Assembly: GCA_963849335.1 (NCBI GenBank)
Contig: CAWKGZ010000012.1
Coordinates: 336,542-400,541 of the forward strand
Direction of reading: 5' to 3'
From: an uncultured Chloroflexia bacterium
Lineage (GTDB): Bacteria > Chloroflexota > Anaerolineae > Anaerolineales > UBA4823
DNA length: 64,000 nucleotides
The notes below the pieces were generated by a model, which did not search any database, was not told where the DNA came from, and saw only the letters and a program-made list of their open reading frames with translations. Positions 6,716 to 64,000 of the stretch are shown one piece after another (position 1 is the first letter of the stretch; each line of letters starts with the position of its first letter). The translations under genes and the position numbers were made by a program.

Positions 6716-6719
6716 CTTA

Positions 6720-7563: not shown

Positions 7564-7582
7564 GCTAATGATAATTATTCTC
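7564..7582. promoter_or_regulatory. Fur box upstream of fur-feoABC
   Basis: GCTAATGATAATTATTCTC matches the 19-bp consensus GATAATGATAATCATTATC at 16 of 19 positions. It lies 12 bp upstream of the fur start codon. Confidence 0.65.
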
Positions 7583-7593
7583 AATAGGCATCA

Positions 7594-10353: not shown

Positions 10354-10401
10354 TATTGCAACGACTGAAGTCGTTACTACGATCACATAAGACAGGTTGT
10401 T

Positions 10402-10647: not shown

Positions 10648-10701
10648 GGCGTCAGCCGCTGCAAAGCAGCGGCGAAAACCCTATTTCACCAGACAATCAA
10701 A

Positions 10702-12374: not shown

Positions 12375-12464
12375 GATATTATTATACTACCTCGGCGGGA
12401 GCGACTCCCGCACAGCGACATTCCCTTTGGAGCGCTTGACTTGAACCACCATCTGATTCGTTGC

Positions 12465-13505: not shown

Positions 13506-13609
13506 AGTATCAAACTACACATTGCCAATCCTCACGCTTCTTGCTATACTTGTAGTGTCCAAAATGGGACAAAAAATCTATTCACCATTCTCTTTAGGAG
13601 GAGAACTGT

Positions 13610-14635: not shown

Positions 14636-14655
14636 TCGATAAACTTAATTGCAAC

Positions 14656-14692
14656 AAAAGCGACGCGCGGCTCCGCGCGTCGCTTTTGTTTT
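14656..14692 (+). terminator. intrinsic terminator or attenuator between the binding-protein gene and the permease genes
   Basis: AAAAGCGACGCGCGG / CCGCGCGTCGCTTTT complementary arms followed by a TTTTGTTTT tail. Confidence 0.65.
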
Positions 14693-14844
14693 CCCGGTGA
14701 CACTTGACTTTAAATTTGATCACCTTTTACGCTTTACGGCAAGTACAAACCCATGTAGAATCAAACAATTCACTTTGCACCGGCAGGCTGCTCGAAAGCG
14801 GATCAAGGGGCAGCCATCTCTCAATACGGGAAATGGAATGATCT

Positions 14845-15979: not shown

Positions 15980-15989
15980 GGTAGCCAGC

Positions 15990-17015
15990 ATGCAGAACTC
16001 AATCACCTACGATTCACCCTGGAAACGCTTCTTTAGCCGCTACCAGATCACTATGATCGGTGGGGCGGCAATTCTCATCGCCATTGTAGTACTGTATATC
16101 TTCTGGCCAACCTACACCGTGGCAGTGCTCAACGCCACCGTACGGCAGTCGACACCGCTGGTTTTAGGCGCCATCTGCGGCTTGATGGGCGAACGGGCCG
16201 GGGTGGTGAACATCGGCATCGAAGGCCAGATGCTGATGGCGGCGTTCATTGCCTTCCTGTTTAACGTATGGACAGGCAACCTGCTACTCTCGATCCTGGC
16301 TGGCATTCTGACCGGGGCCATTCTGGGCGCACTGCTGGGCTTCATGGCAGTCACGTTAAAAATTGACCAGATCATCGGCGGCACGGTGATCAACATCCTG
16401 GCAGTAGGGCTGACGGGCTACTTTTACACGGCAGGCCTGACAACCCACGGCAAACTGGGCCCGATCGTCATCCCAGTACTCTCAGACATCCCGCTGATCG
16501 GGCCAGTGCTGTTCAAGAACCCGCCGATCACCTATGCCACGATCGTGCTGGTCTTCGGCGTGCACTATTTGCTGTTCTACACCAAATGGGGGCTACGCAC
16601 CCGGGCAGTCGGCGAGCACCCACGGGCGGCGGATACGGTGGGCATCAACGTGTATATGATCCGCTACGTCAATGTGATCATCGGTGGCGCTTTTGCCGGG
16701 CTGGCGGGCGCATTCCTGACGCTGGAAGCGGTCGGCTCGTTCGAACGGTCGATGACCAACGGGCGCGGTTTTGTCGCCCTGGCCTGCATGATCTTTGGCC
16801 GCTGGACGCCCTTTGGCGCCTGGGGAGCAGCGCTGTTCTTCGCCCTGTTCACTGCCCTGGGTACCCAGATCTCCTTTATGTTTGGAGGGCAGATCAACAT
16901 TCCGCACCAATTTATCGGCATTATTCCCTACTTCTTCACCGTTCTCGTGCTGGCCATCTCTGGCAAACGCTCTCGCGCCCCGGCGGCGGATGGCGTTCCC
17001 TATACGAAGGAATAG
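15990..17015 (+). CDS. BMP-type ABC transporter permease (second subunit)
   Basis: 341-aa polytopic ORF with motifs GERAGVVNIGIEGQM and TLEAVGSF..MTNGRGF, in operon context. Confidence 0.85.
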   Translation: MQNSITYDSPWKRFFSRYQITMIGGAAILIAIVVLYIFWPTYTVAVLNATVRQSTPLVLGAICGLMGERAGVVNIGIEGQMLMAAFIAFLFNVWTGNLLLSILAGILTGAILGALLGFMAVTLKIDQIIGGTVINILAVGLTGYFYTAGLTTHGKLGPIVIPVLSDIPLIGPVLFKNPPITYATIVLVFGVHYLLFYTKWGLRTRAVGEHPRAADTVGINVYMIRYVNVIIGGAFAGLAGAFLTLEAVGSFERSMTNGRGFVALACMIFGRWTPFGAWGAALFFALFTALGTQISFMFGGQINIPHQFIGIIPYFFTVLVLAISGKRSRAPAADGVPYTKE

Positions 17016-17020
17016 CGCTT

Positions 17021-18553
17021 ATGAGCGACGCAATCGCACTGGAAGTCCGCAATATCACCAAACGCTTCCCGGGTGTACTGGCCAATGACCGGGTCAATTT
17101 CAACCTGCACAAAGGGGAGATCCACGCCCTGCTGGGAGAGAACGGCGCCGGCAAGAGCACGCTGATGAACATCATCTACGGGCTGTACTCGCCAGATGAG
17201 GGCGAGTTCTTCCTGGGCGATGACGATGGCGCCCTGCAACCGGTGCATATCCACAACCCGCACGATGCAATCAAGCTGGGGATTGGCATGGTGCACCAGC
17301 ACTTCATGCTGGTGCCGGTCTTCTCGGTGACTGAGAATGTCATCCTGGGCTCCGAGGTGACCAAAGGCCCCACGCTGGACCTGGGCGCCGCCCGCAGCCA
17401 GATCCACCAGCTCTCAGAGGATTACGGCATGGACGCCAATCCAGATGCGATCGTCGAGGAGCTGCCGGTCGGCGTACAGCAGCGGGTGGAGATCATAAAG
17501 GCGCTCTACCGCCACGCCAAAATCCTGGTACTAGATGAACCGACCGCAGTGCTGACCCCGCAGGAAGTGGAAGACCTGTTCCGCATCATGCGCCATTTGA
17601 CCGAACGCGGCGTTTCGATCATCTTCATCACCCACAAGCTGAAGGAAGTACTGGCGGTGGCAGACCGCATCACGGTGATGCGCCGCGGCCAGGTAGTTGG
17701 CACAGCCATTCCCTCCGAAATTGATGAGCACGGGCTGGCGGCCATGATGGTGGGGCGCGAGGTGCTGCTGCAGGTCGAAAAAGGAACAGCGACGCCAGGC
17801 GAGGTGGTATTGGATGTGCAGAACTTGACCGTGGTGGACGAGCGAAACATGGAAGTGATCCGCCAGGTTTCCTTCCAGGTGCAGGCGGGCGAGATCTTGG
17901 GCATTGCCGGTGTGCAGGGCAACGGGCAGACGGAACTGGTGGAGGCGCTGACCGGGCTGCGGGGCATCAAGTCCGGCAGCATGCGCCTGGGTGACCAGCT
18001 GCTGCCATCACTCAACCCGCGCGCCAATGTGAAAGCCGGGCAGGCGCACATCCCAGAAGACCGGCACAAGCACGGGCTGGTGCTGCCCTACTCCATCGCC
18101 GACAACTGCGTGCTGTGTACCTACTACCAGCCGCCGTTTGCCAAGGGCATTCAGCGCAACCTGGAAGCGGTACTGGAGAATGCCGAAACATTAATTGACC
18201 GCTTTGACGTGCGCACACCCAGCCCTCAGTTGCCGGCGGGCAACCTCTCGGGCGGCAACCAGCAGAAGGTGATCGTGGCGCGCGAGTTGAGCCGCCCTAT
18301 TCACCTGCTGGTGGCAAACCAACCCACGCGCGGCCTGGATGTGGGTTCGATCGAGTATATCCATAACCAGATCGTGGCGAACCGCGACCAGGGCGTGGCG
18401 GTGCTGCTGGTCTCGGCTGAGCTGGACGAGATCATGTCGCTGTCCGACCGCATTGCGGTGATGTACCACGGGCAGATCGTAGCCACGATGGACGCAGAAA
18501 AAGCCACCAAATCCGAGCTGGGTTTGTTGATGGCTGGGGCTTCGCCCAACTAA
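17021..18553 (+). CDS. ABC transporter ATP-binding protein with duplicated ATPase domains (sugar/nucleoside type)
   Basis: Start set at the ATG at 17021 (MSDAIALEVRNITKRF). GENGAGKST Walker A, LSGGNQQK signature, VLDEPT and LLVANQPTRGLD Walker B. The longer track ORF starting at 16586 overlaps the permease gene. Confidence 0.9.
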   Translation: MSDAIALEVRNITKRFPGVLANDRVNFNLHKGEIHALLGENGAGKSTLMNIIYGLYSPDEGEFFLGDDDGALQPVHIHNPHDAIKLGIGMVHQHFMLVPVFSVTENVILGSEVTKGPTLDLGAARSQIHQLSEDYGMDANPDAIVEELPVGVQQRVEIIKALYRHAKILVLDEPTAVLTPQEVEDLFRIMRHLTERGVSIIFITHKLKEVLAVADRITVMRRGQVVGTAIPSEIDEHGLAAMMVGREVLLQVEKGTATPGEVVLDVQNLTVVDERNMEVIRQVSFQVQAGEILGIAGVQGNGQTELVEALTGLRGIKSGSMRLGDQLLPSLNPRANVKAGQAHIPEDRHKHGLVLPYSIADNCVLCTYYQPPFAKGIQRNLEAVLENAETLIDRFDVRTPSPQLPAGNLSGGNQQKVIVARELSRPIHLLVANQPTRGLDVGSIEYIHNQIVANRDQGVAVLLVSAELDEIMSLSDRIAVMYHGQIVATMDAEKATKSELGLLMAGASPN

Positions 18554-50918: not shown

Positions 50919-51896
50919 ATGAAGCTAGATATTGCTCTTGAAATGATGGAAAATCTCGATGACGATCAACCGGTCGTGAAGTTCGAGAAGATCAAAAAAA
51001 CAGCTCGCTCTGGCGCAGAAAGGCAGCCAGCCAGCGCCGCCCAGTTTGTCCAAACTCAGGATGACTCGCGCAAATCCTTTGAGTTCTCCTACCGCGCTTC
51101 CCGGCACGAACAGGGTTGGCTGCTGAACTCGCTGGGCGGCTTTTACGAGCGGGGCTGGATTGCGGATATTTTACGCATGGTCAAGGGCGGCAAGGAAGCG
51201 TCCGTCTACCAATGCGCTTCGGGGCAGGCTGTCCAGGCGCCATCCCTGGCAGCCAAGGTTTTCCGCCCGCGCCAATTTCGCAACCTGAAGAAGGATAATC
51301 TCTACCGCCTCGACCGGGAGGTGCTGGATGAGAACGGCAACCGCATCGTCGACCTGGGCATGCTCAAGGCGCAGCGCAAGCGCAGCGTGTACGGGGAGCA
51401 GATCCGCCACCAGTCCTGGCTGGCGCACGAGTTCCAGGCACTGAAAACCCTGCACGCCGCCGGCGCGGACGTTCCACAGCCGTATGAGATGGGCGAAAAC
51501 GCTATCTTGATCGGCTTCATTGGGGACGAGCTGACCGCGGCGCCGACACTCAATACGGTGCGGCTGAAGCGGGGGGAGGCCAAACCGCTCTTTGAGCGCG
51601 TGCTGCACAATGTCGACCTGATGCTGGACAATGACATCGTCCACGCCGACCTTTCGGCCTACAACATCCTCTACTGGCAGGGGGAGATCACGCTGATCGA
51701 TTTCCCCCAGGTCATCTCACCGCGCCGGCACCGCAGCGGCTACCAGATCTTCCGCCGCGATATCACCCGCGTCTGCGAGTACTTCGCCCACCAGGGACTG
51801 CGCACCGATCCCACCCGCCTGGCGGCTGATCTGTGGCAGGCGCATGGGTATCGCACCGTTCAGGAGAGCCAGCCGGAACTGCTGGAGAGCGATTAA
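50919..51896 (+). CDS. RIO-type atypical serine protein kinase
   Basis: KGGKEASVYQC (compare RIO STGKEANVY), HADLSAYNILY (catalytic loop HGDLSEYN) and LIDFPQ (metal-binding) motifs. Confidence 0.8.
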   Translation: MKLDIALEMMENLDDDQPVVKFEKIKKTARSGAERQPASAAQFVQTQDDSRKSFEFSYRASRHEQGWLLNSLGGFYERGWIADILRMVKGGKEASVYQCASGQAVQAPSLAAKVFRPRQFRNLKKDNLYRLDREVLDENGNRIVDLGMLKAQRKRSVYGEQIRHQSWLAHEFQALKTLHAAGADVPQPYEMGENAILIGFIGDELTAAPTLNTVRLKRGEAKPLFERVLHNVDLMLDNDIVHADLSAYNILYWQGEITLIDFPQVISPRRHRSGYQIFRRDITRVCEYFAHQGLRTDPTRLAADLWQAHGYRTVQESQPELLESD

Positions 51897-53920
51897 ACGG
51901 TTTTCTTCTTGCCATGGGCGCATATACCGGTGTGGAAGACACAGGCGGTGCGCTGGCACTGCCATGCCTGGCGCAATGGCTCGATATCCGGCTGCTTTTC
52001 GGGCCATTGCGCGATGCCCGTCCACCGGCGAACCAATCCCAGCGCCACCCGGTCGCGGTCATCCAGATCGGCTTCTTTTTGTGCTTCCAGGTGTGCCTGC
52101 AGAGCCCATAAGGCGTTGTAGCAGCCCATGGTCAGCATCTTGAGCGCATTCTCCTGGCGGTAGCCCAGGCGCTCGGTGAACTGCAGCGTGCCCAGGGGCA
52201 TCTCCTGCGGGTAGATTTTGACCTCCTCGACATGCAGCGGCAAGCCATTTGCTACCTGGTCATCCGCCCAGCGGCTCATCCGTTCGAGGATACCCTCGGC
52301 ATCTCTGCCCAGGTAGCCTTTCAATCCCAGCTGGCGGGCTTTGTCGCGCAGATGGCTTTCGATCTGCCCGCGCTGTGCCTCGCTCAGGTCCATCAGGTTC
52401 TCCTGGAAGGACTCCAGGACCAATTTCAACGCCTGCCCCAGCTCTTCGCCGCGCTGCCCGAAGGTGTTGATCGTGCTGACCGTATTGGTATCGCTGGTCT
52501 GCTTGGCAATACCCTGGATCTCCAGCGTGCGCTGTACCACCTGGAAGAAATTGGGATCTTTGACTTCATCCGGCGCGACCTTCGGTTCTGCCCCGAGGAA
52601 GATGACAAACAGTTCCAGCGCCACCTCCCGCCTGGAGTGCCTGCTTTGCTCAGCCCATTCACGCACAAAGTCCACCGCGCTGTTGGAGGGGGTGTTGTCG
52701 ATAGCGCCGCCGTCCACGTAGGTGTCGCTCTCCTTGGGGAAGAAATCGCACATCTCGGCAGAATCGCGCCAGCTGGCAATGAGGCGCTCCCAACTGTCCT
52801 TCCCCTCTGCAGTCTCTCCCTTGATGGACTGATATGCCTGAGCCAGAGCCGCCTCGACCTGGGGGTCGCCCAGCCAACCGTTGAGCAAGCGATACAAGAG
52901 GGCATTTTCGGGATCGCTGGCAGGGTAAATTTCGGTGAGCGGGAAGGGGGTGAACACGCCAGGGAAGCGCCCTGAGCAGATGGCAGCGTCGATGGCCGCC
53001 GGATTTCCGGGAACCTGCAGGCGGAAGCTGCCCAGCGGGATGGCATCCGGATCATATCTCTGCAGCCGCCAGGCTTGCTTGTGCATAAAGCGCACAAAAT
53101 TCTCCGGCGGCATATAGGCGGAGATCTCCAGGCGCCCGGTGCGGTAGTTGGCGCGTGTCAGGCGCACCTCGATGCCCAGACGGGCATAATCGCGCAGTGT
53201 GCGCCTCGGGTCGACCAGGATAAATTTCTTGACCCCGGGTTCATCGGCGGTCATCGCCCCCGCCATGTGCTCCGGGCGGAGCGGGGAGACGGGCTGGGTA
53301 AAGATATCCCTGATCTTGCGATCTTCGCCGGGGGGAATGAGCGAACGATCCATGCCAAAACGCCTCAGGTAGGTGCGGATGGCCTCCTGCAGCAGCGCTG
53401 TGCGCTGCTCCTTGAAGATGCGCAGCACCTGCCCTGCTCCTCCCAGGCGCTCACCCAGTTCGCGCGCCAACGCGAGCACCGCGGCCCACACCCCGGGCTC
53501 GGGTAGCGCCCCGCGCTGGGGATCGGTCCACCACCAGCCGAGGCGGACCAGCTGCGGCAGGCTCAGGTTGAAGCGCAGCAGATCATCCTTCAGCTTGCCC
53601 AGCGGGCCCTCCGGGCTGTCGTCGATGACGCGTTTATCCGGCATCAGCAGCCAGGCATGGTGGTAGGCCTTGACCAGCGGGTCCAGCGCCTCTACCGCCT
53701 GCAGCGGGTCGGCGAGCACTTCGCCCGGCAGCCCGCGCTTCTGGTACAGGTACTCGGCAAAGAAAGCGCTGTTCATCGCCCCGATCGACGAGCCGGTGAT
53801 GACATCGAACTCCATCCCGGTAATATGAAAAGCATGGATGACGCCGGCCTCGTACAGGCCCTTGGCGCCGCCGCCGGTCATGACAAAGCCACGTTTTTTG
53901 AGTTTACCAATAACGCTCAT
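51893..53920 (-). CDS. patatin-like phospholipase with a roughly 400-aa C-terminal extension
   Basis: GGGAKG oxyanion motif, GSSIG nucleophile elbow (53771-53797), VDGGAIDN Asp motif. Start preferred at MSVIGK (53920, GGAGAAG RBS). Confidence 0.8.
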   Translation of the reverse strand: MSVIGKLKKRGFVMTGGGAKGLYEAGVIHAFHITGMEFDVITGSSIGAMNSAFFAEYLYQKRGLPGEVLADPLQAVEALDPLVKAYHHAWLLMPDKRVIDDSPEGPLGKLKDDLLRFNLSLPQLVRLGWWWTDPQRGALPEPGVWAAVLALARELGERLGGAGQVLRIFKEQRTALLQEAIRTYLRRFGMDRSLIPPGEDRKIRDIFTQPVSPLRPEHMAGAMTADEPGVKKFILVDPRRTLRDYARLGIEVRLTRANYRTGRLEISAYMPPENFVRFMHKQAWRLQRYDPDAIPLGSFRLQVPGNPAAIDAAICSGRFPGVFTPFPLTEIYPASDPENALLYRLLNGWLGDPQVEAALAQAYQSIKGETAEGKDSWERLIASWRDSAEMCDFFPKESDTYVDGGAIDNTPSNSAVDFVREWAEQSRHSRREVALELFVIFLGAEPKVAPDEVKDPNFFQVVQRTLEIQGIAKQTSDTNTVSTINTFGQRGEELGQALKLVLESFQENLMDLSEAQRGQIESHLRDKARQLGLKGYLGRDAEGILERMSRWADDQVANGLPLHVEEVKIYPQEMPLGTLQFTERLGYRQENALKMLTMGCYNALWALQAHLEAQKEADLDDRDRVALGLVRRWTGIAQWPEKQPDIEPLRQAWQCQRTACVFHTGICAHGKKKTV

Positions 53921-54011
53921 AGTTCTCTTCTCCATCTTTACGTGCTGGTTTAATTCGTCGCTACGCTCCGGCTCACACGAGGAGTGCTCACACATGAAGC
54001 CTATTCAACGC

Positions 54012-55817
54012 TTATCTCTTCATCAACCTCATGATCATTTCCCTATCTTGGAGTGCGGCTTCATAGTTGGGTTCGATCTCCAGGGCCATGTCAATATAAA
54101 CCAAAGCCTTTTGATATTCTCCGCGCAACATGGCTACGCTGCCAAGACCATTCCAGGCGCCAGCGTCACTTGGATCTTGATCACGCACAGCTTTGAACAT
54201 CCTCTCGGCTTCTGATAACGCCCGGTAAAACTCTTCGCTATGCTGGCTATCGCGCATTACCATGGCATAGTTCTTGAAGGTATAGGCACGTGCATTCTGC
54301 AGCCAATAATCCTCGGGGTAAAGCGGTAAGATTTGATCCAATATCTCCAGTGTCTTATCGATCGCTAGAGCAGCATTGATGAGGTCACGAGGATAGTATC
54401 TAAAGAATTCTAACTGTAACTGGTATAAGGCTTGTTTGCGTTCGTTGAGATTTATTTCACCGGCTTTTTTCGGTGGCAGCCGCTTAACCCCCCGAGTATT
54501 TCGATCTTCGTCGATCGCTTGCTGGTAATATTTATCTTTCTGGATACAATTTATTCGAACTCTGCGGAAGTCTTCTTTATCCCCAATATTTGCTTTAGCG
54601 GTAACATCATAAACCCCCTCGCCAGCAAATTTTGCGCTCTCGTAATACCATTTCCCCTGGTAATGGGAAATCTTACATTTACCTATTTGTTCAACGGGAA
54701 TCCCCTCAGGATGCGTCCGGACTTCAATATCTACGTTAGCTGTCTCAGCGAATGGGGTGGAGGCTAAGATGGGAAAAGAGCCTTCAAGGATTCGCCCCTG
54801 GTTTTCACCCAGAGGTATCTCTTCATTTTCAACCGGTGAATCGACTGAAAAACATGCCAGGTATGGAAATTGGATCATGACCGGCTGGTCGATTTGCTCT
54901 TTCGCCACCGTCGTTTGCGAAGGTATATCCCGGTACGTCGCGTGCAGGACCCAGGATGGTTGATCATCAACAACAAATCTAAAAAAGCCATCCGCAAGCG
55001 TGATTACCTGATCAATATCCAGTCCTATTACATCCACACTTGCATTCTCTACCGGTCGCCCATCTTCAAATACCACACTGCCAAGGATGGTGTAATTTTC
55101 TTTTGCTGCAGGCGCGGGGAAAATCTCAATCCCATACGAGCTCTTCAAGCGAGCGCTGAGCAGTGAGCGGTCCATTTCAAGCTTGTTGCGCGCATTCTCA
55201 CCGCACAGGTCACGCAAGGCACTGAATAGGATCTGTTCGCCCTTGTTGTTAGGCGGCATCCAGTTTGGCACCATGCTTTCCAGGATGTCCAACGGCTTCT
55301 GCTCTACTTCGACGACTGAAAGCAGCTTCAGGCTGTCTGCAGAGTTCTGATGCCCGGGTGACAGCAGCTGTCTGACGCTTTTTTCGATTTTTCCCAGCGC
55401 CTGGTTGCTTAAAATCTCATCCCACTCAGCTAAATCCTTCGCCCCCCGCGCTCGCTCGCAAAGCGAATTCAATTTAGAGAACCAGTTGTCCAGCTTACCC
55501 AGGCATATCACCAGCCGGTCCTCGTTCTTGAAGTCAGCATCCCAGCGCTGATTTTCGAAATCTTCCCACAGCTTTTGCCATTTCTTGTTGCCCGGTACCG
55601 GTTCAATGTTTTCTTTTACCTGGATGAAGCGGTAATGACTGTCCGCATACTGCACCACGATATCATCCACAAACGCACGCGCTTCAGATCGAACGGTAGT
55701 GATCTGCTGAGTCAGGTCACTGATCCTTGGATCCAGCATACGCCCCAGATACAAGGCTGCGACGGTATTCTGGTAATAAATTCCCGACTGGGTGGTCGAT
55801 CCGCCTCTTATGGACAT
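54012..55817 (-). CDS. three-part protein: N-terminal PD-(D/E)xK-like (Cap4/DUF4297-like) nuclease head, carboxypeptidase-regulatory-like beta-sandwich, C-terminal TPR repeats
   Basis: N-terminus SGIYYQNTVAALYLGRML ... VDDIVVQY...RFIQVKEN (D...QxK). Middle GSVVFEDGRPVENASVDVIGLD...ADGFFRF. C-terminus AGAWNGLGSVAMLRGEYQKALVYIDMALEIEPNYEAAL. Clearly more AT-rich than neighbouring genes. No P-loop seen. Confidence 0.55.
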   Translation of the reverse strand: MSIRGGSTTQSGIYYQNTVAALYLGRMLDPRISDLTQQITTVRSEARAFVDDIVVQYADSHYRFIQVKENIEPVPGNKKWQKLWEDFENQRWDADFKNEDRLVICLGKLDNWFSKLNSLCERARGAKDLAEWDEILSNQALGKIEKSVRQLLSPGHQNSADSLKLLSVVEVEQKPLDILESMVPNWMPPNNKGEQILFSALRDLCGENARNKLEMDRSLLSARLKSSYGIEIFPAPAAKENYTILGSVVFEDGRPVENASVDVIGLDIDQVITLADGFFRFVVDDQPSWVLHATYRDIPSQTTVAKEQIDQPVMIQFPYLACFSVDSPVENEEIPLGENQGRILEGSFPILASTPFAETANVDIEVRTHPEGIPVEQIGKCKISHYQGKWYYESAKFAGEGVYDVTAKANIGDKEDFRRVRINCIQKDKYYQQAIDEDRNTRGVKRLPPKKAGEINLNERKQALYQLQLEFFRYYPRDLINAALAIDKTLEILDQILPLYPEDYWLQNARAYTFKNYAMVMRDSQHSEEFYRALSEAERMFKAVRDQDPSDAGAWNGLGSVAMLRGEYQKALVYIDMALEIEPNYEAALQDREMIMRLMKR

Positions 55818-55891
55818 AGCTTACCCATTCCTTGCATCTCTAGCATTCCTACCGGGGAGGGGCGATTCTCTCTGCTCCTCCCCAGTGTTTT

Positions 55892-57223
55892 TCACTCCAC
55901 TGGATCAAAACTAATATCGATATACGGCAACGGCGCTCCGCTCACCTGTTCTTCCAGGTCGGTGCGCTGCGGTTGGGGCACGTGGGGTTTGACCGACTGC
56001 GGCTTTTTCGCTTCAACGTACGCCGTGCGGCTGTTCACCACCCGCCTCCCAATCGTCTCTATCAGCTCGGCATTGGGGATCGAAGGCCAGCGCGTCGTCC
56101 GCTCTGTCGAAGCCACGGCGTAAGCGCGAGGGGTTTCCCCCGGCTGGGGAAGGGGCAACAGCGCGTCCAGGATCTGGTTGATGGCCGGAATTTTCCCTTT
56201 TTTATCCGCCGGCGCCCACGGCGTGGCATTCTCGCTGCCGTGGTGGCCAATTTTGAGAAAGTCCAGCGGCTGGGCAAGGTCGGCATGCCGCTCCTGCCAC
56301 ATCACATTCCAGCTGCTGTTGCTCTTTCCTGGCTTCACCGCAATGTTATTTTTACCGCTCCACTCGGCGTCGCCGGGGAAGAGCAGGCGGCGCCCGTGCC
56401 ATTCGAGCAGCAGCACCACGCTCAGGTTGTTCTCCGTTTTGCCGGCCAGCTCCGCTGCCGCCAGCGCGTTGGCCTGGATGCGGCCGCGCAGCAGCTCAAA
56501 ATCCTGGGCACTGATGTTGCGCGGTGTGCGCACCACTTTCTGCTCTTCGCCGGGAAACAGCGCCTGGTACCCCTCCGCCATCCCCTGCGGTGCAGCGCCG
56601 CTCGGCGCATTCATCAGGCCGGTACCACCCAGGTAGTAAGCATCGATTTCTGCCATCGGGCCGAGAACCTTGAGCTCGACCGCCGGGTCTTCAAAGATCT
56701 TCAGCTCGCCAGGGGGCGTGTCGGCGGTCACATACACGGGCAAAATGCCTTTGTCCATGCCCTTGCACAGCAAATCGACCGCTTCTTCCTTGGACAGGCT
56801 GAGCAGCTCTTCGACCTGCGCTTTCATCTCCCCGGCAGCAAAGGCCGAGAGGCCCCTCAGGGCGCGCTGGGCAGCCGCCTTTAATGCCTGAAAGCCTTGG
56901 GCTTTGGGATTGAGCCGGTCGAATGCCGGGCTGAGCCAGATGTGGCCGATTTCGATATTTTTGAAGAACTCTTCTTCAAAGCCTTTGTGATGGTCTTCGT
57001 GGGGGTGGCTGACTACAAGCAGGTCAAGGCGTTTTTTGCCCGGTGAACCCGCCGGAAGCTCGTCCTCCAGGTGCTTGATACACTCGCCCAGCCGGTCCAG
57101 GGTATTGAATTTGTTGCCACAGTCGATCAGGATATGGACTTCCCGGTGCAGGTCGGGCACGCGCAGGTAGATGCAGTCGCCCAGGCCAACGTTGTACAGG
57201 CGCACTAATAATTGACCGTCCAT
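55892..57223 (-). CDS. metallo-beta-lactamase-fold hydrolase
   Basis: VGLGDCIYL...ILIDCG and VVSHPHEDHHKG (HxHxDH, 56987-57007), later KIGHHGS. GAGGAGG RBS. The start overlaps the upstream gene's stop by 19 nt. Confidence 0.8.
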   Translation of the reverse strand: MDGQLLVRLYNVGLGDCIYLRVPDLHREVHILIDCGNKFNTLDRLGECIKHLEDELPAGSPGKKRLDLLVVSHPHEDHHKGFEEEFFKNIEIGHIWLSPAFDRLNPKAQGFQALKAAAQRALRGLSAFAAGEMKAQVEELLSLSKEEAVDLLCKGMDKGILPVYVTADTPPGELKIFEDPAVELKVLGPMAEIDAYYLGGTGLMNAPSGAAPQGMAEGYQALFPGEEQKVVRTPRNISAQDFELLRGRIQANALAAAELAGKTENNLSVVLLLEWHGRRLLFPGDAEWSGKNNIAVKPGKSNSSWNVMWQERHADLAQPLDFLKIGHHGSENATPWAPADKKGKIPAINQILDALLPLPQPGETPRAYAVASTERTTRWPSIPNAELIETIGRRVVNSRTAYVEAKKPQSVKPHVPQPQRTDLEEQVSGAPLPYIDISFDPVE

Positions 57224-59280
57224 CCGTCCTCCTCTTTGTCATACTCGCCGGCGCGCAGGTGCGGGGTCACCTCGAAACGCACGACACCTGCCTGCTCGAA
57301 AGCCGTGACCGGCCTGGATGCTTCACTGAAACGGCTCTCCGCCTGGGTGGGGCCAACCAGCCCATTGCGGATGACCGCCGACAGGTAGCCCAACAGGGCT
57401 TGCTTGCGCTGCCGTCCAACCTCTAAATCCTTGAGCAGCCCCAACTCCAATTTGGTGGGGATATCGTTACGCTTGAGCGCCGTGGGGGCGGCTTGATAAA
57501 TTGCCAGGCGCCGGCGGATATCTTGTTCTTCAGTTTCAGCGAGGTGCTCGGTGCCGGGTTTTCGGAACCAGGAGAGCAGGTTGCCGCGCTCGTCAAAGAC
57601 CAGCGTCCCGCCGCAGTCCAGGTTGTAGGTCTTGCCATTCCAGGTCTTGAAATCCAGGTCAGCCTCTCGGTCTTTCTTTAGCTCGACAACCTCCTGCCAG
57701 GCGTATTGCAGCACGATTTCGCGCGGCAGGCGCTCAGCCGCCGCTCCGATTTTAATGGTATCGTACAAGTCCACCACGCGCACATCCTGGTGGGGAGGGA
57801 TGTGCAGCAGACGGCGATTGTCGCTCAGGAAATAGTAGGCCGCAGTGCGCGAGCGGGAGAGACGCCCAATGTCGGGATAAACGAAATCCATCCGCTCTTG
57901 GGACAGCACTTCTCTGAAGGCACAATCTTCGAGCAAATCCTTCCCCGGTTTATACTGGCAGGTGCACAGGCCGCGTGCATGAAAGACATCCAGCATCGCC
58001 GGGCGGTAGCCCTGCTCATCCACCGGATTGGTGAGGATATCATTGCGGATCACCGCCCTGGCGTAATCAATGAATTGGATGTCGCAGGGCGGACACAGGT
58101 CAATTGGCTGTAAAGCCACCCGGCGGAAGCGATCCGCCGCCCAATACAAGGCCTGGGCGGGGGTCACTTTTTTCCCTAACAGGTTCTTCTGCAGGTGCTT
58201 GGTGGCAATGGTGACCAGGATCTCCCACATGGCACCGGTCAGCACCTGCGAAACAGTGTGCGGCACCAGGCTGCCAGCAACATCTTTCATTTTTAGCTTA
58301 TTAAAAGCGGTACGCAGGTAATCTCGCCCCGCAACTTCCTGCCCAAACTCCTTAGCCAGGTCAGCCACAACATTGGCTCCTGCCAGGCCTGCGGATGTCT
58401 GGCTGACAAAACGGCGGATATCATGATTGAACAGCGCCATCAGGATGGCGGTCAGGTCGCCAATGAACTCGTGAAAAGCGGCGGTTTGCAGCGACGAGAG
58501 CTGGTTGTACATTGGCCGGATGCCATCCAGGATGGCATGCCCGGTCTCGTGGGCGATGATGTCATGCGAGAGGCAGGTGTAGCGCGGGCTCTGCTGGTCG
58601 CCGTAATAGTAAAACTGCAGCGATTTGGAATGCTGGTCGTAATACGCATTATCTCCATAGCCGGCATGCGGGACGATGATCAGGCGGTTGCCGTCAAAAC
58701 CCCAGGGCACCGGGCGTCCCAAAGCCCAGGGTTCTTCATAAAATTCCAACACGCGCTGGACAACCGCCCAGGCATTCAGCTGGTGAAAATAGGGGTTCTT
58801 GACTGTTTTATCGATGAATTGCTGATACTGCTGCTTATATTTTTCCGGGTTCTTTATCTGCTTGGGATCATCAATATCTTCAGGGACCTTGGGTGCACCC
58901 GGCAGCCAGTCTGTCTCAGAAATGGGGGTGTGAAACCAACCTTCTACTTCATCCCAAACCACCGGATCCAGCAGCGTTTGGGTATCCGCGTTAAAATCGA
59001 CCACTGCAATGCGCGCACTGGTTGGGCCGGCGCTTATATTCTTCTCTAACCGCACATAAATTTCCTGCACCCCCAAGGTGGGATTTTCCAGCGCCACCAG
59101 GGGGTCTTTGATGAACACCGGAAGCTTCATCATCAAGCCCACATCCTGGCGGGTTTCCTTAGCGATCTGGTAGTATACCGGGTACAGGTCGTCCGTCACC
59201 GATTTATTCAGCTTGATCATGGCGCCGCGCCGCCATGGCTTTTGCGGGCCATTTTTATTATTCGTTTTCTGATCAGTCAT
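57205..59280 (-). CDS. thermolysin-like (gluzincin) zinc metalloprotease, no signal peptide
   Basis: IAHETGHAILDG (HExxH, 58537-58551), followed about 20 aa later by AAFHEFIGDL (ExxxD third ligand). Start set at MTDQK (59280, GGAGGA RBS) rather than the longer track ORF. Confidence 0.7.
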   Translation of the reverse strand: MTDQKTNNKNGPQKPWRRGAMIKLNKSVTDDLYPVYYQIAKETRQDVGLMMKLPVFIKDPLVALENPTLGVQEIYVRLEKNISAGPTSARIAVVDFNADTQTLLDPVVWDEVEGWFHTPISETDWLPGAPKVPEDIDDPKQIKNPEKYKQQYQQFIDKTVKNPYFHQLNAWAVVQRVLEFYEEPWALGRPVPWGFDGNRLIIVPHAGYGDNAYYDQHSKSLQFYYYGDQQSPRYTCLSHDIIAHETGHAILDGIRPMYNQLSSLQTAAFHEFIGDLTAILMALFNHDIRRFVSQTSAGLAGANVVADLAKEFGQEVAGRDYLRTAFNKLKMKDVAGSLVPHTVSQVLTGAMWEILVTIATKHLQKNLLGKKVTPAQALYWAADRFRRVALQPIDLCPPCDIQFIDYARAVIRNDILTNPVDEQGYRPAMLDVFHARGLCTCQYKPGKDLLEDCAFREVLSQERMDFVYPDIGRLSRSRTAAYYFLSDNRRLLHIPPHQDVRVVDLYDTIKIGAAAERLPREIVLQYAWQEVVELKKDREADLDFKTWNGKTYNLDCGGTLVFDERGNLLSWFRKPGTEHLAETEEQDIRRRLAIYQAAPTALKRNDIPTKLELGLLKDLEVGRQRKQALLGYLSAVIRNGLVGPTQAESRFSEASRPVTAFEQAGVVRFEVTPHLRAGEYDKEEDGWTVNY

Positions 59281-59320
59281 CTCTGCATCCTCCAGAACTG
59301 CCCCATCTCTTGGGCATCTC

Positions 59321-61288
59321 CTACTTATAACTTGCCACCAGCTTACCCGCCTTACCACCCGTGACACGCACCCAGATCGGGTTGGTGAAGCAGCAGAAAA
59401 GCTCACCGTCCGGGCCGGCGGTTTGGGCGAACAAACGGCAGTAGCCCTGTAACCCGTTCAATTGGATCGTCACGGTATCCCCTTTCTGCAGGATCGTTTT
59501 CACCGGCTTTCGACGATGGCGGAAGCAGGTGACCAGCTCGACCTGCTCCGCCGGGCCAAATTCGGGCGTGGTGAACGCCTGGATCTTCAGATCAATATCC
59601 TGACTGCCCGAGACAGTAATCACCTCCCCCAGATGGGCGGTTTTACCCTGCTGCTCTACGGAGAAGGTGACGATCGGGCCGTCTGTGACCACGCAGGAGC
59701 CTTTGCGCATCGCCGCCAGGATCTCTGCCTCCGGCGGGATGGCATCCGTGTAGGCATCCGGCAGGTATACGACCGTGCGTACCTTGCCAAGCGCATCGTC
59801 ATCGACAATCAGCCGCCGGCGGTAATCCCAGCTCATGCCGACGCTGTAATTGAAGCTACCATGCGCATCTGAGCCTGCCAGGAAGACCGGGCGCAAGCCG
59901 GGAAGCCGGTCAGCTGCAGACCAGTTTGCCAGGCCCTGGCGCAGTGCCAGCTCCCATTCGCCATCCGCCCAGGCTTTAACTTTCTTGATTCGTTTTTGAT
60001 CCTGCTTGATCAGCTCGGCGGGGTCTGACCACTTTTTACTATCGAATGGGTTGAGCGTCAGGTGTGCGCTGCGCCGGATGCGCGCATTCCAGAACTCGAA
60101 GCCCGTCAGGCGGGGGTGGGATAAATGTTCATTCACCCATTTTCCGGGAGGCGGCGGCTGAGCTAACTGGAAGGGGTGGGCGGCGAAGAGCAGCGTCTGT
60201 GGTGGGAGCAGGGTGAGGACTTTTTCAAAGGGGTGGACCTTGCCAAACATGCGCCGGGCTTCATCCTTTGAATAGCCACCGTTCTTGGCTGCCTGGTGCA
60301 GCAATGCCTGGATGGTCTCCTGGAACACCTCGGTCATGAAACCGCCCTCATCGGGCAGGAAGGCGCCCTCGACCATCTTGTCCATTCCCCCAAAAGCCAG
60401 CATGTGGACCAGGGTGTCCCCCTTGCCAAGCAGGGTGATCTCTTCACCCAGGATGCAGCGGAACTGGTCGTTGGAGACGTTTGGGTTCGCCGTGTCGGCT
60501 TTCAAGCGCTCCCAACGGGTTTGCGGGCTGACGTCCGGGTCAACGTCATCAAGGTCGCAGGAATGATCGGTGATCACCAGCCAATCCAGGCCAAGAGCAT
60601 GTGCCGCCGTACACGACTCGGGCACCGGGTTGCCAAGCTCCTTGATGTCGTTGGTATACACCGAGTGGTAGTGGGTGTCGCCATAGAACCAGCGCCGGGG
60701 CTGGTGTGTATTTGCCGCCCGGCTTAACGGCAGGGCATGCCCGGCGAGGAATGTTTCCAGATGGATGTAGATATGGGATGGCTTATCATAGGGGTAATAG
60801 CTGCCATGAAAACCCACCCGCAGGCGCAAAGGTTTGCCGCGCACAGCCCCCTTGAATTTTGCCAGGGGGATCTTCAGGCTGTGCCACCAGGTTCTGAGTT
60901 GGAACATGCCATTGCCGTTCACCCTGGGCAGGTCGGCGGGCAGCAGCGCCAGCACGTCCTCCCAGACCACGCCAGGCATCCACTGCTGAATTTTCAGCAT
61001 ATCCAGCCGCCAGGGACCCTTGGCGGGCTTCACGATATTGGTATCTCTGACCAGGAAGAGCAGCGGAATTTTATTTTGATCTGGCTCAAGCCTCCAGGGA
61101 GCGTCAGCCCAAAATTCGGGTTGGTTTTTCCCGACCGGAGTCTCGGCACTGAGGGGCAGCGGTGCGACGGTAGGCAAGCCAGGCGTAGGAGCGCTTACCT
61201 TGGGCGGTTTTACGCCAAAGACGCCTTTGAGGAACTTGAGGGCCTGATCTTGCTGCTGCTGGTAATCTTTATCATGATTGCTCATCAT
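59321..61288 (-). CDS. PHP-domain metal-dependent phosphoesterase with large N- and C-terminal extensions
   Basis: FYGDTHYHS (60663-60682), LVITDHS and AGSDAHG motifs typical of the PHP fold. 655 aa. GGAGGTGA RBS. Confidence 0.7.
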   Translation of the reverse strand: MMSNHDKDYQQQQDQALKFLKGVFGVKPPKVSAPTPGLPTVAPLPLSAETPVGKNQPEFWADAPWRLEPDQNKIPLLFLVRDTNIVKPAKGPWRLDMLKIQQWMPGVVWEDVLALLPADLPRVNGNGMFQLRTWWHSLKIPLAKFKGAVRGKPLRLRVGFHGSYYPYDKPSHIYIHLETFLAGHALPLSRAANTHQPRRWFYGDTHYHSVYTNDIKELGNPVPESCTAAHALGLDWLVITDHSCDLDDVDPDVSPQTRWERLKADTANPNVSNDQFRCILGEEITLLGKGDTLVHMLAFGGMDKMVEGAFLPDEGGFMTEVFQETIQALLHQAAKNGGYSKDEARRMFGKVHPFEKVLTLLPPQTLLFAAHPFQLAQPPPPGKWVNEHLSHPRLTGFEFWNARIRRSAHLTLNPFDSKKWSDPAELIKQDQKRIKKVKAWADGEWELALRQGLANWSAADRLPGLRPVFLAGSDAHGSFNYSVGMSWDYRRRLIVDDDALGKVRTVVYLPDAYTDAIPPEAEILAAMRKGSCVVTDGPIVTFSVEQQGKTAHLGEVITVSGSQDIDLKIQAFTTPEFGPAEQVELVTCFRHRRKPVKTILQKGDTVTIQLNGLQGYCRLFAQTAGPDGELFCCFTNPIWVRVTGGKAGKLVASYK

Positions 61289-61394
61289 TCACCTCCATAC
61301 TTCTAATGCCCGCATTTCACCTCATTTGGTATTAACCAAGAGATGCACAGGCAAGGGTTAGGATTTGGATAAGTTGAAAATGGCCGGGATAGCC

Positions 61395-62129
61395 TCATTC
61401 AAGCTTACCGGTGAACCGCTTCGCTGTATTCAGGATGAAATTCCACAGAGGCCAGGGGCTGGTGCCGATGATGAACGCAAACGCCACCATGATTGTCGGC
61501 ACGGACAGGTCGATGGTGATCGCATTGCTGTTCGCCAGGGTGAATTCCAGCTTTACCAGCGAGAGCAGCAGGACGGTGATCAACACCAGAATCGGTGTGG
61601 CGACAATGTGGGCAAGATGCATCAGCACGCCCTCCCGGTAAAAACGATGGCTGCGCAAGTACCAGCCGGTGGTGAAGATTTTGCTCACCAGGATACCTGC
61701 CAGCCCCCAAAGTAATATTTCAAGGTAGCGCAGGGGGTCTTCTGACCAGATACTGAAACCATCGCCTGAATCGACGAGAAATAGATGCGCTACCATGTAC
61801 AGGATGATCACCGCCCAAAAGAGACCAAACACGATCCAAAAAAATACGCGACCCGCTTTGTCATCGACGGTTTCTGCGATGCGTTCCAAATAAATCTTGA
61901 TATCCGTCCGGTCTTGATCCATGTCAAGCTGCTGCGGTTCGCTGGCGAAACTTCCCGTTTCCAGGGCAACAAAGGTCCACATGCCTGGCGTTGGAATGTC
62001 CAGGGTAAATTCGCCACCATCGTCGGTCGTTGCGTATTTGGTTTGACCGGCTTTGTAGGCTTTTATGGTGGCATAAGAAACGCGCTCTTTTCCCCCTGAT
62101 CGATAAATCGTACCTGAAGCTGTAGACAT
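61395..62129 (-). CDS. membrane protein: N-terminal carboxypeptidase-regulatory-like beta-sandwich plus about 4 TM helices
   Basis: GTIYRSGG..ATIKAY...TTDDGGEFTLDIPTPGMWTF, then hydrophobic helices (VFFWIVFGLFWAVIILYMVAHLF, and others). AAGGAGG RBS. First gene of the co-directional cluster. Confidence 0.5.
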   Translation of the reverse strand: MSTASGTIYRSGGKERVSYATIKAYKAGQTKYATTDDGGEFTLDIPTPGMWTFVALETGSFASEPQQLDMDQDRTDIKIYLERIAETVDDKAGRVFFWIVFGLFWAVIILYMVAHLFLVDSGDGFSIWSEDPLRYLEILLWGLAGILVSKIFTTGWYLRSHRFYREGVLMHLAHIVATPILVLITVLLLSLVKLEFTLANSNAITIDLSVPTIMVAFAFIIGTSPWPLWNFILNTAKRFTGKLE

Positions 62130-62452
62130 AATTCCTCCTTGCGATGATTGGGTTGGGGATTAGACGAATAAATAAAATAGAAGCCGTCATGTCAAGTGAC
62201 GACTTCTTGAAGGTAGCAGAACAATGGCAACGATGGCAACAAGACCCTTCTGTCACCTAACCGGGCAGTGCTTAAATTCATTTCACAATAGTATTATATA
62301 TCCCTATTGTCATAAGTCAACACTTTGAGCGAGCAATGTGATCTCCTAGCGCCTAGACAAATCCAGAGAATGATGAACACCATGTGTTCAAAAAAGGCGG
62401 CTATATATTGGGGCTATCTACGCCGCAACGAAGAACTAAAAATCGGCTACCC

Positions 62453-62793: not shown

Positions 62794-64000
62794 TTAATCT
62801 TCTCCCTTCAAATTCAGCGGCAAGTAGATCACCCAGGACTCAGGCAGCAGGGGCAGCTCAAAATCCTGAGTAACCAGCGTATCAGCCACAACGGTAACTT
62901 CGCTCACCGTGACTGGTGGATAACCGTCGGCGCTGACCGTGGCGGTGTAAACACCGGCGGGAAGTAAGGAAGTGTAATAACCGTTGGAGTCGGTCAGGGT
63001 GTTGAAAGTGTACCCCAGCGGGTTGGTGAAGACCAGGGTGGCGCCCGGAATGGGATCAGCACTGCTGGCGGCGCTCACCGTGCCGTCCAGCGAGCCGGTA
63101 GGGAGCCGGCAGTTGCTCATGTGGGCGAAGGTGGCAAGGGATGCTTTGACGAAGTCGGTGTAGTAGGGCATGTTGAGATATTGCAGCTGGTCATTGGTGG
63201 TGTGATAGTAGTCGTTAAAATCAGAGTCGTCTTCGATTGCCAGGATGGAGACGTAATTGAAGTCCCAAAAGGAAGCATGGTCGCTGGCGCCCATACCGGT
63301 ATCAAAAATATCTGCATCCAGGTTTATCGCATAGGCGGTAATGACATCGCTAAACAGTTGCGCCAGTTCCAGCGTGGCAGGCATCTCGTCCCAGGCGTGC
63401 AGGTCGATCCCCGGGCGGTTATCAGAGTTCCATGCGATCATATCCAGATTGATGTACCCCAGGATGGTCTCCTTCTGCAGCCTGGACCGCTCGGCATATT
63501 CATAACTGCCGAGCAGGCCCTGTTCCTCACCGGTCCAGAAGGCAAAGCGCAGCGTGCAGCCCGAGTAGTATTGGGAGAATATCTTCGCCGCCAACATGGT
63601 CGCCACCGAGCCGCTGGCATTGTCATCCGCGCCAGGGGCGATCGAGCCGGTGGGCATGTCGTCCAGGTGACCGCCGATAATGTAAATATTGCGCGGGGTG
63701 ACCAACCCGGGCATCTTGCCGATCACATTGGGAGGCGTGCCGGTTTCCCAGGTGTGGTATTCCACCGTCAGCCCCAGGTCGCTCAGGTACTCGCCGACGT
63801 ATTGGGTGGCTTTCTGGATTGGTTCACCGCTGTAGGTGTAGCGGGTATTGATGTCATAAGGTTCCCCTCCAACAGTGACCAATGTCTCGCCGCTCAGGCC
63901 GCTGGTCAGGTCATACACCTCGCTCTCCGTGACCTGGTCGATGATTTGTTGGACGAGCGGGTCAGGGACGACCACGGCGGGGAAGATGTCGGCTTCTGCA
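62794..64000 (-). CDS. M28-family aminopeptidase with C-terminal carboxypeptidase-regulatory-like domain (5' end runs off the window)
   Basis: GGHLDD, PGADDNASGSVATML and TGEEQGLLGS zinc-ligand motifs. The frame stays open to base 64000. The C-terminus reads GATLVFTNPLGYTFNTLTDSNGYY...GVYTATVSADGY. Confidence 0.8.
   Translation of the reverse strand, partial: AEADIFPAVVVPDPLVQQIIDQVTESEVYDLTSGLSGETLVTVGGEPYDINTRYTYSGEPIQKATQYVGEYLSDLGLTVEYHTWETGTPPNVIGKMPGLVTPRNIYIIGGHLDDMPTGSIAPGADDNASGSVATMLAAKIFSQYYSGCTLRFAFWTGEEQGLLGSYEYAERSRLQKETILGYINLDMIAWNSDNRPGIDLHAWDEMPATLELAQLFSDVITAYAINLDADIFDTGMGASDHASFWDFNYVSILAIEDDSDFNDYYHTTNDQLQYLNMPYYTDFVKASLATFAHMSNCRLPTGSLDGTVSAASSADPIPGATLVFTNPLGYTFNTLTDSNGYYTSLLPAGVYTATVSADGYPPVTVSEVTVVADTLVTQDFELPLLPESWVIYLPLNLKGED

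Follow-up and report, generated by a model that had tools for sequence, protein, structure and literature searches.

The 64,000-nucleotide stretch of DNA considered here, which we call the window, comes from an uncultured Chloroflexia bacterium of the order Anaerolineales (contig CAWKGZ010000012.1 of GenBank assembly GCA_963849335.1, positions 336,542 to 400,541). On its minus strand, at 51893-62129, is a cluster of six co-directional open reading frames (ORFs) that we refer to as G1 to G6 (Table 1). In order, they encode a membrane protein, a PHP phosphoesterase, a metalloprotease, a metallo-beta-lactamase (MBL)-fold hydrolase, a protein with a nuclease-like head, and a patatin-like phospholipase. 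The cluster was originally proposed to be a single six-gene conflict or programmed-death system. The ORFs are all present and are packed as described, with a 19-nucleotide (nt) overlap between G3 and G4 and 40 nt between G2 and G3. However, the six genes are not conserved as one system. The fixed unit is two genes, G3 and then G4, and the complete six-gene order was found in a single relative, a contig with an 82%-identical PHP protein and an extra gene between G5 and the patatin gene.

Public gene calls match G1, G3 (P0121, 691 amino acids [aa]), G4 and G5, and the call for G2 begins one codon later (P0001, 654 aa). The longest ORF for G3 uses a GTG start inside G2 and reaches 59406. The 700-aa form of G6 has no entry in the protein collection, and the G6 ortholog in a related locus (L085; loci are given by such labels where needed) starts later, with MTPKLKKRGF. 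We therefore place the probable start of G6 at the ATG of 53935 or 53920; the gap after G5 would then be approximately 76-91 nt, and the other intergenic gaps are 106 nt (G1-G2) and 74 nt (G4-G5). A Shine-Dalgarno sequence (AAGGAGG) precedes the ATG of G1. A promoter-like site, recognized by its consensus match alone, is approximately 165 nt upstream of the G1 start and is the probable beginning of the transcription unit. No contig on record was returned for exact matches to the window PHP protein or to P0001.

The composition of the cluster is not uniform. G5 has a GC content of 0.486 and a third-position GC content (GC3) of 0.54, compared to a GC3 of 0.69-0.78 in G2, G3, G4 and G6 and 0.62 in G1. 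The GC content upstream of G1 is 0.46, compared to 0.589 for the whole window. The AT-richness of G5 and of the upstream region, which had been taken as a sign of horizontal acquisition, is therefore real, but one low-GC gene is a weak argument for horizontal transfer of the whole cluster. The hairpin between G4 and G5 (Table 1) may be a trace of the junction at which G5 was inserted.

Table 1. Genes, protein domains and other features of the cluster, with their positions in the window
Feature	Position	Strand	Description
G1	61395-62129	-	244 aa, membrane protein
G2	59321-61288	-	655 aa, PHP/CehA-McbA-like metallo-phosphoesterase
G3	57205-59280	-	691 aa from ATG; predicted thermolysin/fungalysin-fold zinc metalloprotease; core component
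G4	55892-57223	-	443 aa, ComEC-type MBL-fold hydrolase; core component
G5	54012-55817	-	601 aa, Cap4/HamA-type nuclease head and Ig/TPR body
G6	51893-53995	-	long patatin-like phospholipase, 675-700 aa
G3 stop/G4 start overlap	57205-57223	-	19 nt, GGAGG within the last G3 codons
G5 residues 1-235	55113-55817	-	Cap4/HamA-type PD-(D/E)xK nuclease domain; E45, D51/D52, Q66-x-K68
G5 residues 243-601	54015-55091	-	two Ig-like beta-sandwich domains, then TPR solenoid
Promoter-like site	62293-62320	-	TTGACT-16-TATAAT, 11/12 consensus matches
GC-rich hairpin	55854-55883	.	11 pairs; G4-G5 spacer (74 nt); terminator-like solely on the + strand

Conservation of the protease-MBL pair

The G3 and G4 genes are translationally coupled and inherited together, and their pairing is obligate. 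The MBL gene follows the protease gene in nearly all of the 78 metagenome loci that have downstream sequence. The 19-nt overlap, with its internal GGAGG, is identical in 45 of 77 metagenome junctions, and the remaining branches have 8-nt overlaps or 10-nt gaps. Pairwise identities of G3 and G4 are correlated (r = 0.94), and none of 999 permutations reached this value. Some contigs have two or three pairs in tandem; three are found on one contig in the group L113-L115 (for example, L114 at 3479-16315).

The two proteins belong to large families. With a threshold of E = 0.001, a word-indexed search found approximately 2,070 homologs of the protease, and approximately 2,080 clusters (at 50% identity) of MBL-fold proteins pass the same threshold, most of them outside the G4 family. 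Protease homologs were found by tblastn on 165 plasmid records, mostly from Rhizobiales and chiefly from Rhizobium. Plasmid proteins from Phyllobacterium and Rhizobium share 39% identity with G3 and G4, have HEFGH and HEHKDH motifs, respectively, and keep the 19-nt overlap. Plasmids of Planctomycetota and Bacteroidota, of which single examples were inspected, have more distant pairs with other junctions. Across phyla the protease-MBL pair recurs, including in plasmid defence islands; the PHP, TPR and long patatin proteins recur with it solely in the nearest clade. In the far clades the partners G1, G2, G5 and G6 vanish, and the pair has heterogeneous neighbours, often on the opposite strand.

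Several plasmid homologs of G3 are labelled "serine protease" in RefSeq/GenBank (L170 at 7908-9740, L172 at 6971-8926, L174 at 9094-10875), and the gene that follows the protease gene in Phyllobacterium and Rhizobium is annotated as a metallohydrolase. Because the plasmid homologs carry HExxH and G3 folds as thermolysin, the serine protease label is probably a propagated misannotation.

Some distant members of the family have unusual architectures. In L171, an S8 subtilase domain is fused before an M4-like domain (4258-7818, HETTH at residue 759), and an MBL gene (7811-9151) follows with an 8-nt overlap. This two-protease fusion may overlap with the "subtilase-associated" nucleases of Tuck et al. 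In L136, a stop-to-stop ORF of 1336 aa (13567-17574) encodes a tandem of distant M4-like modules, of which the first is degenerate (HELTK) and the second is intact (HEVTH), and an MBL gene is next. We suspect that a pseudo-protease may regulate an active protease in this protein. The very long "protease" ORFs of L135 and L169 have stop-free high-GC leaders and were discarded.

G3 is a divergent member of the M4/M36 peptidases, so far as can be judged from its sequence and predicted structure. Its HETGH motif (residues 244-248) is accompanied by E271 and D275, and the HExxH...E...D pattern is invariant across homologs (invariance was judged over 11-28 homologs for each protein of the cluster). 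Its AlphaFold model (predicted local distance difference test, pLDDT, 82.7; predicted template modelling score, pTM, 0.88) matches M4/M36 proteases with a Foldseek probability of 1.0 and TM(target) of 0.50-0.62. The matches at probability 1.0 are fungalysin, aureolysin and thermolysin (4k90, 1bqb and thermolysin). G3 therefore has the features of peptidase family M4/M36, an HExxH motif with a downstream Glu and a two-lobed thermolysin fold. The Pfam M4 score is 19.2 bits, just under the cut-off of 22.4, so that G3 appears to be a divergent and unclassified M4/M36 branch. Searches of NCBIfam and of Protein Data Bank (PDB) sequences gave no match to G3, and a Pfam scan found no caspase or CHAT domain in the cluster. 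An extra C-terminal alpha+beta domain (approximately residues 480-691) has weak, non-significant matches to NTF2-like folds (E about 1). G3 can thus be described as a cytoplasmic zinc protease of the thermolysin fold.

G4 is an MBL-fold protein of the ComEC type. Its HPHEDH motif (residues 73-78, H73xH75xD77H78), D285 and H327/H328 are all invariant across homologs. The Pfam MBL score is just under the cut-off and the assignment is confirmed by profile search: the best PDB matches of the G4 family profile are ComEC MBL domains (7e-12 and 2e-8). Single-protein searches of PDB sequences with G2, G3 and G4 found no match. The PADLOC models for LmuA-MBL and reverse transcriptase-associated MBL match all 28 of the G4 family proteins, PDC-M48B matches 27 of 28, and Avs1a 20 of 28. 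PADLOC thus places the G4 family among defence MBL proteins, but it leaves the protease family (0 of 24 members) and the PHP family unmatched. By these profile matches, G4 belongs to the MBL group that serves as effectors in Lamassu, DRT, AVAST and Hachiman. The distance from motif 2 to the NNxS strand is 187 aa in G4 and 68 aa in ComEC, which amounts to approximately 110-120 inserted residues; within this stretch, residues 196-235 are Gly/Ala/Pro-rich and poorly conserved. By analogy with known systems, G4 is predicted to be a DNase and a pro-nuclease.

Accessory genes, genomic context and competing explanations

G1, G2, G5 and G6 are accessory genes: they recur solely in the nearest clade, and their order varies. 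This clade (at least 55% identity) comprises 26 non-redundant loci, many of them truncated. The partners of the pair among these loci, at varying positions, are G1 in 12, the long patatin in 7, G5-like proteins in 6 and PHP in 4. The motifs quoted for all of the enzymes in the original prediction are present and intact, in columns that are invariant across homologs. The protein families assigned there also stand, with patatin (Pfam, 8e-13) and TPR (5e-8) found directly, MBL and M4 by profile and fold, and PHP through NCBIfam (2e-19). The five soluble proteins, G2 to G6, have no hydrophobic N-terminal stretch (maximum 12-residue hydropathy <=1.13), in agreement with the earlier view that they lack signal peptides.

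G1 has an N-terminal Ig-like (CarboxypepD_reg-like) domain with no signal peptide, followed by three to four transmembrane-like segments; the Pfam CarboxypepD_reg match (E = 4e-5) is under the cut-off. Its homologs are directly upstream of the protease gene in the 12 near-clade loci that have them. G6 has an intact Ser-Asp dyad (motifs GGGAKG, GSSIG and DGG), and the Pfam Patatin match extends over residues 38-436 against a model of 191 positions. Approximately 200 extra residues are found inside the patatin domain, and a 260-aa extension follows at the C-terminus. In the near clade, the long patatin gene adjoins the pair either upstream or downstream. The 952-aa gene after the patatin gene in L085 was considered as a STAND protein and rejected; it is AddB.

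The nuclease head of G5 was assigned by profiles because Foldseek with the full-length model returned TPR and Ig matches and none to a nuclease. The Pfam Cap4_nuclease model matches 5 of 12 G5 family members (best 6e-12), and the head profile matches AbpA/HamA (8zue, E = 0.0017) and Cap4 (6vm5, E = 0.007). The body was assigned from model secondary structure, Foldseek Ig and TPR matches, and Pfam (TPR_1, 5e-8; CarboxypepD_reg, 9e-4). In related proteins the same type of head is fused to NACHT/NB-ARC NTPases (P0410, P0413-P0419), and the same type of Ig-TPR body carries a trypsin head (P0408), a pattern typical of effector swapping. The body is a candidate sensor or oligomerization module, and we consider G5 to be the best sensor candidate in the cluster; the TPR protein had originally been named, with the membrane protein, as a candidate sensor. 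Loci L087, L103/L104 and L111 also encode Cap4-like sensor proteins beside the pair; in L111 a Cap4-NACHT-TPR protein is encoded two genes upstream. One putative G5 family member (L164) was discarded, its match being confined to the TPR.

G2 matches the NCBIfam families CehA_McbA_metalo (2e-19, cut-off 80 bits) and PHP PRK07945 (8e-6), both under the curated cut-offs, and its family profile has no match in the PDB. All metal ligands are conserved, with motifs G203-D-T-H-Y-H-S209 and D474-A-H476 and homolog invariants GDTHYHS, DH, GEE, AAHP and SDAH. At 70% PHP identity, the PHP gene is convergent with the pair (L086). At 66%, the genes downstream of the pair encode a protein that joins a Cap4-like head to an FGE-sulfatase domain, then SIR2, and then an nSTAND1-WD40 protein. 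At 47-56%, the pair is absent, and the neighbours are patatin, EAD8-trypsin, TCAD2, AAA_16, nSTAND1, CHAT and a C25-trypsin-endonuclease protein. In 80 loci of distant PHP homologs (approximately 25% identity, many phyla), tblastn and phmmer found no co-occurrence of the six proteins, so these distant relatives say nothing about synteny. The N-terminus of the PHP protein was also examined for an EAD-like adaptor, but the sole shared small ORF matches the C-terminal beta domain. This ORF (L003 at 4393-4809, 138 aa) is a stand-alone copy of that domain (E = 1e-20, G2 residues 525-645) and is flanked by genes for an AAA_16 NTPase and a patatin.

On plasmids, the pair occurs close to defence genes and mobile elements. 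In L174 the genes directly upstream of the pair encode Hachiman HamA/HamB (E = 1e-138 and 1e-220) and an S1/P1 nuclease. Septu PtuA (E = 1e-151) is encoded downstream of the pair in L172, and CBASS and a MoxR/SAV_2336 system flank it in L177. On a Hymenobacter plasmid (L176), the gene for an LmuB-like ATPase is directly upstream of a distant pair, near integrases and a Tn3 transposase, and a 40-kb Isosphaeraceae plasmid with the pair has a caspase gene and an integrase. The conflict or defence reading of the locus is thus supported by its context: the MBL group of G4, the fusions of the G5 head, the neighbours of PHP homologs, and the plasmid Hachiman, Septu and CBASS systems.

Other hydrolases also accompany the pair in unrelated hosts, mostly co-directional with it. 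In L172 (Rhizobium) the companions are a matrixin protease, a metallophosphoesterase and a patatin. L177 (9166-13135) and L178 (8989-13135) have an operon of a distant protease homolog, an MBL-like protein (HRHKDH) and a DUF2235 (Tle1-like) lipase, joined by 4-nt overlaps. In L179 the companions are an S1/P1 nuclease, a serine protease and Endonuclease NS. In L114, an astacin/matrixin-like protease, a YLATT protein with three transmembrane segments and a 400-aa patatin are encoded between the first and second pairs. The S1/P1 genes are directly beside the pair (L174 at 8180-8989, L179 at 11870-12736). In S1/P1 nucleases a Trp must become the N-terminus for zinc binding; the L174 protein has a leader of just 10 residues before this Trp and would therefore need processing for activity.

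The variable partners could be explained by a defence island, in which independent units (the pair, the Cap4-Ig-TPR protein, the patatin and the PHP protein) were gathered at one hotspot and each works alone or with partners encoded elsewhere, such as STAND NTPases. The order and content of the accessory genes differ among close relatives, as expected for an island. The PHP gene of L086 is convergent, the patatin gene is upstream of the protease gene in L097, L103, L107 and L131 and downstream in L098, and extra genes are inserted in L085 and L091. The distinct GC content of G5 and the STAND/EAD genes that adjoin PHP homologs lacking the pair point the same way, and so does an AAA_15/21 ATPase pair inserted at differing places (L091, L134, L147). 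However, analogous but non-orthologous hydrolases are found with the pair in distant phyla (L172, L177/L178, L179), often co-directional and with 4-nt overlaps, and the astacin-like protease, YLATT and patatin genes of L114 lie between tandem pairs. This recurrence exceeds what a hotspot predicts and counts against the island. We regard the island as a possible, minority explanation; it is a serious alternative for the accessory genes and leaves the core pair untouched.

The AAA_15/AAA_21 ATPase (approximately 720-800 aa) and its 220-320-aa partner (L091 at 12011-15037; L134; L147) were observed near the pair at differing positions. The ATPase and partner genes fell into one similarity cluster (c11), and they look like an independent small defence system at a shared hotspot.

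We think it very unlikely that the cluster is a set of housekeeping or scavenging hydrolases that serve nutrition or turnover, perhaps after non-classical export, and take no part in conflict. In favour of this view, digestive or secreted enzymes are common among M4 proteases, S1/P1 nucleases and patatins, genes for M28 and M19 peptidases adjoin the cluster or PHP homologs, and the pair is among metabolic genes in L088-L090 and L170; moreover, distant PHP relatives are widespread with no conserved partners. Scavenging enzymes would not be expected to lack signal peptides in all five soluble proteins, though, or to have an MBL protein of the defence-effector group and not of a metabolic MBL family, or to share the G5 head with NACHT NTPases. 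Nor does this explanation account for the adjoining Hachiman, Septu, CBASS and LmuB-like ATPase genes, for the occurrence of the pair on mobile elements, or for the strict translational coupling of protease and nuclease, which is unexpected for bulk digestion. Also very unlikely is that the cluster serves development or kin conflict and not phage defence, either as a cassette for programmed death or autolysis in filamentous bacteria or as a set of interbacterial toxins. The near clade is confined to metagenome-assembled genomes of filamentous Anaerolineae, PHP relatives occur in STAND/EAD/TCAD systems that Kaur et al. tie to multicellular bacteria, and secreted toxins are known among DUF2235/Tle1-like lipases and among patatins. 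However, we saw neither immunity genes nor genes for secretion systems, and no toxin-delivery domains, and plasmids from unicellular Rhizobiales also commonly have the pair, beside anti-phage systems.

The flanks of the cluster are described here for completeness. An M28 peptidase with a C-terminal CarboxypepD_reg domain is encoded upstream (62794-63975, minus strand); this gene holds an equal position in L085, and its Ig-like domain type is also found in G1 and G5. Downstream, a RIO-type kinase gene (50919-51896, plus strand) is convergent with the patatin gene, the two ends overlapping by 4 nt (51893-51896), and is followed by genes for an ArsR-type regulator and an MFS transporter. The remaining large ORFs of the window encode transporters, PBP2, GuaA, an M3 peptidase and a clostripain-like protein. 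The last is a 914-aa protein (2684-5428, plus strand) with a clostripain (Peptidase_C11) domain (E = 2e-39) and no visible relation to the cluster.

Relation to known systems

MBL pro-nucleases with a similar organization were described recently (Tuck et al., Science 2025, PMC12799240). In these proteins, the active site is obstructed by two insertions. Once oligomerization of a sensor has activated it, a partner trypsin-like protease cuts the insertions and converts the protein to an indiscriminate DNase. The protease partners listed in the supplement of that study are trypsin, caspase/CHAT and subtilase, and a metalloprotease is not among them. In the caspase-nuclease (canu) loci, the nuclease is downstream of the protease, and Ig-like and TPR proteins are also present (PMC12799240). 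The natural reading of G3-G4, by analogy, would be a fourth, metalloprotease-partnered branch of this protease-activated pro-nuclease principle. A domain-based survey of genomic contexts could overlook G3 because Pfam misses this protease. Searches of the literature for a defence system combining a metalloprotease with an MBL protein or a pro-nuclease found no report. The original prediction held that the combination maps onto no named system. Its core does fit the principle known from HamM, Avs1a and CanC, but the metalloprotease sets it apart.

G4 resembles the MBL proteins of Hachiman (HamM), AVAST (Avs1a), Lamassu and DRT systems in several ways. It is a ComEC-like MBL protein of approximately 400-450 aa with extra sequence between catalytic motifs, its gene adjoins and is co-inherited with a protease gene, and it matches PADLOC/NCBIfam models built on those systems, with relatives in defence islands. 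In contrast, G3 is predicted to be a free-standing thermolysin-fold protein, whereas the protease in those systems is a trypsin domain fused to HamA, Avs1b or LmuA. Here the order is protease and then nuclease, and a helicase, STAND or SMC sensor is absent from the window. G4 also scores far under the membership cut-offs of the specific models (Avs1a, 28.8 compared to 420; 6A-MBL, 42.9 compared to 220). The cluster likewise differs from each system as a whole. There is no STAND NTPase with a fused trypsin, as in AVAST type 1, and the Avs1a score is below its cut-off. No LmuB-like match was found in the cluster. HamA models give weak matches to the G5 head (1e-6, residues 4-81), and the Hachiman helicase is absent.

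The closest layout is that of Canu (CanABC), in which the protease gene is also upstream of the MBL nuclease gene. Its variable loci have Ig-like, TPR and function-unknown genes, close to the arrangement of G1, G3-G4 and G5. However, the Canu protease has a caspase/CHAT fold and G3 is a predicted zinc metalloprotease, a counterpart of CanB was not detected, and patatin or PHP genes are not reported for Canu loci.

The accessory proteins have relatives in other systems. The G5 head shares its nuclease fold family and its E...D...QxK motif with Cap4 (CBASS), HamA/AbpA (Hachiman) and Avs/bNACHT proteins, but G5 has no SAVED domain, helicase partner or NTPase and carries its head on an Ig-Ig-TPR body. 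The cluster has neither the cyclase nor the SAVED domain of CBASS. Like the CBASS patatin CapV, G6 has an intact GxSxG/DGG dyad and no signal peptide, but it is twice as long, with the insertion of approximately 200 aa and the C-terminal extension, and no cyclase accompanies it; its score against NCBIfam CBASS_lipase is 20.3, compared to a cut-off of 200. PHP homologs (47-66% identity) are found among genes of the STAND/EAD/TCAD systems (Kaur et al., eLife 2020, 2021), with neighbours in other Anaerolineae that include nSTAND1-WD40, TCAD2, EAD8-trypsin, SIR2_2, CHAT and AAA_16, but no STAND, vWA-MoxR, EAD or TCAD gene is found in this window. PHP, MBL and patatin components are not mentioned in Kaur et al. 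(eLife 2020, 2021).

A possible mechanism for the protease-MBL pair

Based on these comparisons, we propose that the locus is an anti-invader cluster of the abortive-infection type, built around G3-G4 as a protease-gated pro-nuclease module. We hold this proposal with about as much doubt as confidence. G4 would be made as an inactive pro-nuclease in which insertions between the metal-binding motifs occlude the active site, by analogy with HamM, Avs1a and CanC. G3 would itself be held off until infection or another trigger acts, and would then cut the insertions of G4. The released DNase would degrade DNA without discrimination, so that the invader is stopped and the cell is sacrificed.

In this proposal, G1, G2, G5 and G6 are accessory modules added by this Anaerolineae lineage. 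We suspect that G5 is a stand-alone sensor-effector and the best candidate for sensing or oligomerizing, and hence for controlling the protease. G1 could be a membrane partner with a cytoplasmic Ig-like domain that, with G5, supplies sensing or oligomerization. G2 and G6 might be additional effectors, either controlled by G3 or acting alone.

Several observations weigh against a gated defence module. The correlated trees of G3 and G4 would also arise from plain co-inheritance, and we infer the gating of G4 from the length of its insertion alone. Thermolysin-type proteases are classically secreted digestive enzymes. No known sensor NTPase was found in the window: a scan of the cluster proteins and large ORFs found no STAND, AAA+ sensor, vWA-MoxR, EAD or TCAD protein, and agreed with the earlier statement that there is no STAND NTPase or cyclase. 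The flanking genes are housekeeping genes (M28 peptidase, RIO kinase, ArsR, MFS), as they are in L088-L090, where the pair is among metabolic genes. Lastly, many far-clade loci have the bare pair and unrelated neighbours, and in these loci the trigger would therefore have to be sensed by the protease itself.

A broader form of the protease-gated module is also conceivable, although we think it unlikely. G3 could be a master switch that unlocks several zymogen effectors, including the MBL protein, the PHP protein, the insertion-bearing patatin and possibly also the nuclease with the Cap4-like head. The candidates in other phyla would be S1/P1 nucleases, DUF2235 lipases and metallophosphoesterases. 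If true, such a switch would be a bacterial executioner cascade acting on DNA, lipid and phosphoester targets, with Ig/TPR proteins as the trigger.

We do not regard the system as new in kind. It belongs with the protease-gated nucleases, of which it would be a new variant, and the other hydrolases that repeatedly accompany the pair are unusual. If G3 acts as proposed, metalloproteases would be a fourth protease class beside the trypsin, caspase and subtilase partners known from 2025. The class is widespread, being found in Chloroflexota metagenomes and, as plasmid homologs, mostly in Rhizobiales. The copies in Rhizobium and Agrobacterium are in culturable hosts, and the activation hypothesis is thus directly testable. 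The recurrence of the pair with lipases, phosphoesterases and nucleases raises the idea that one protease may license several effectors.

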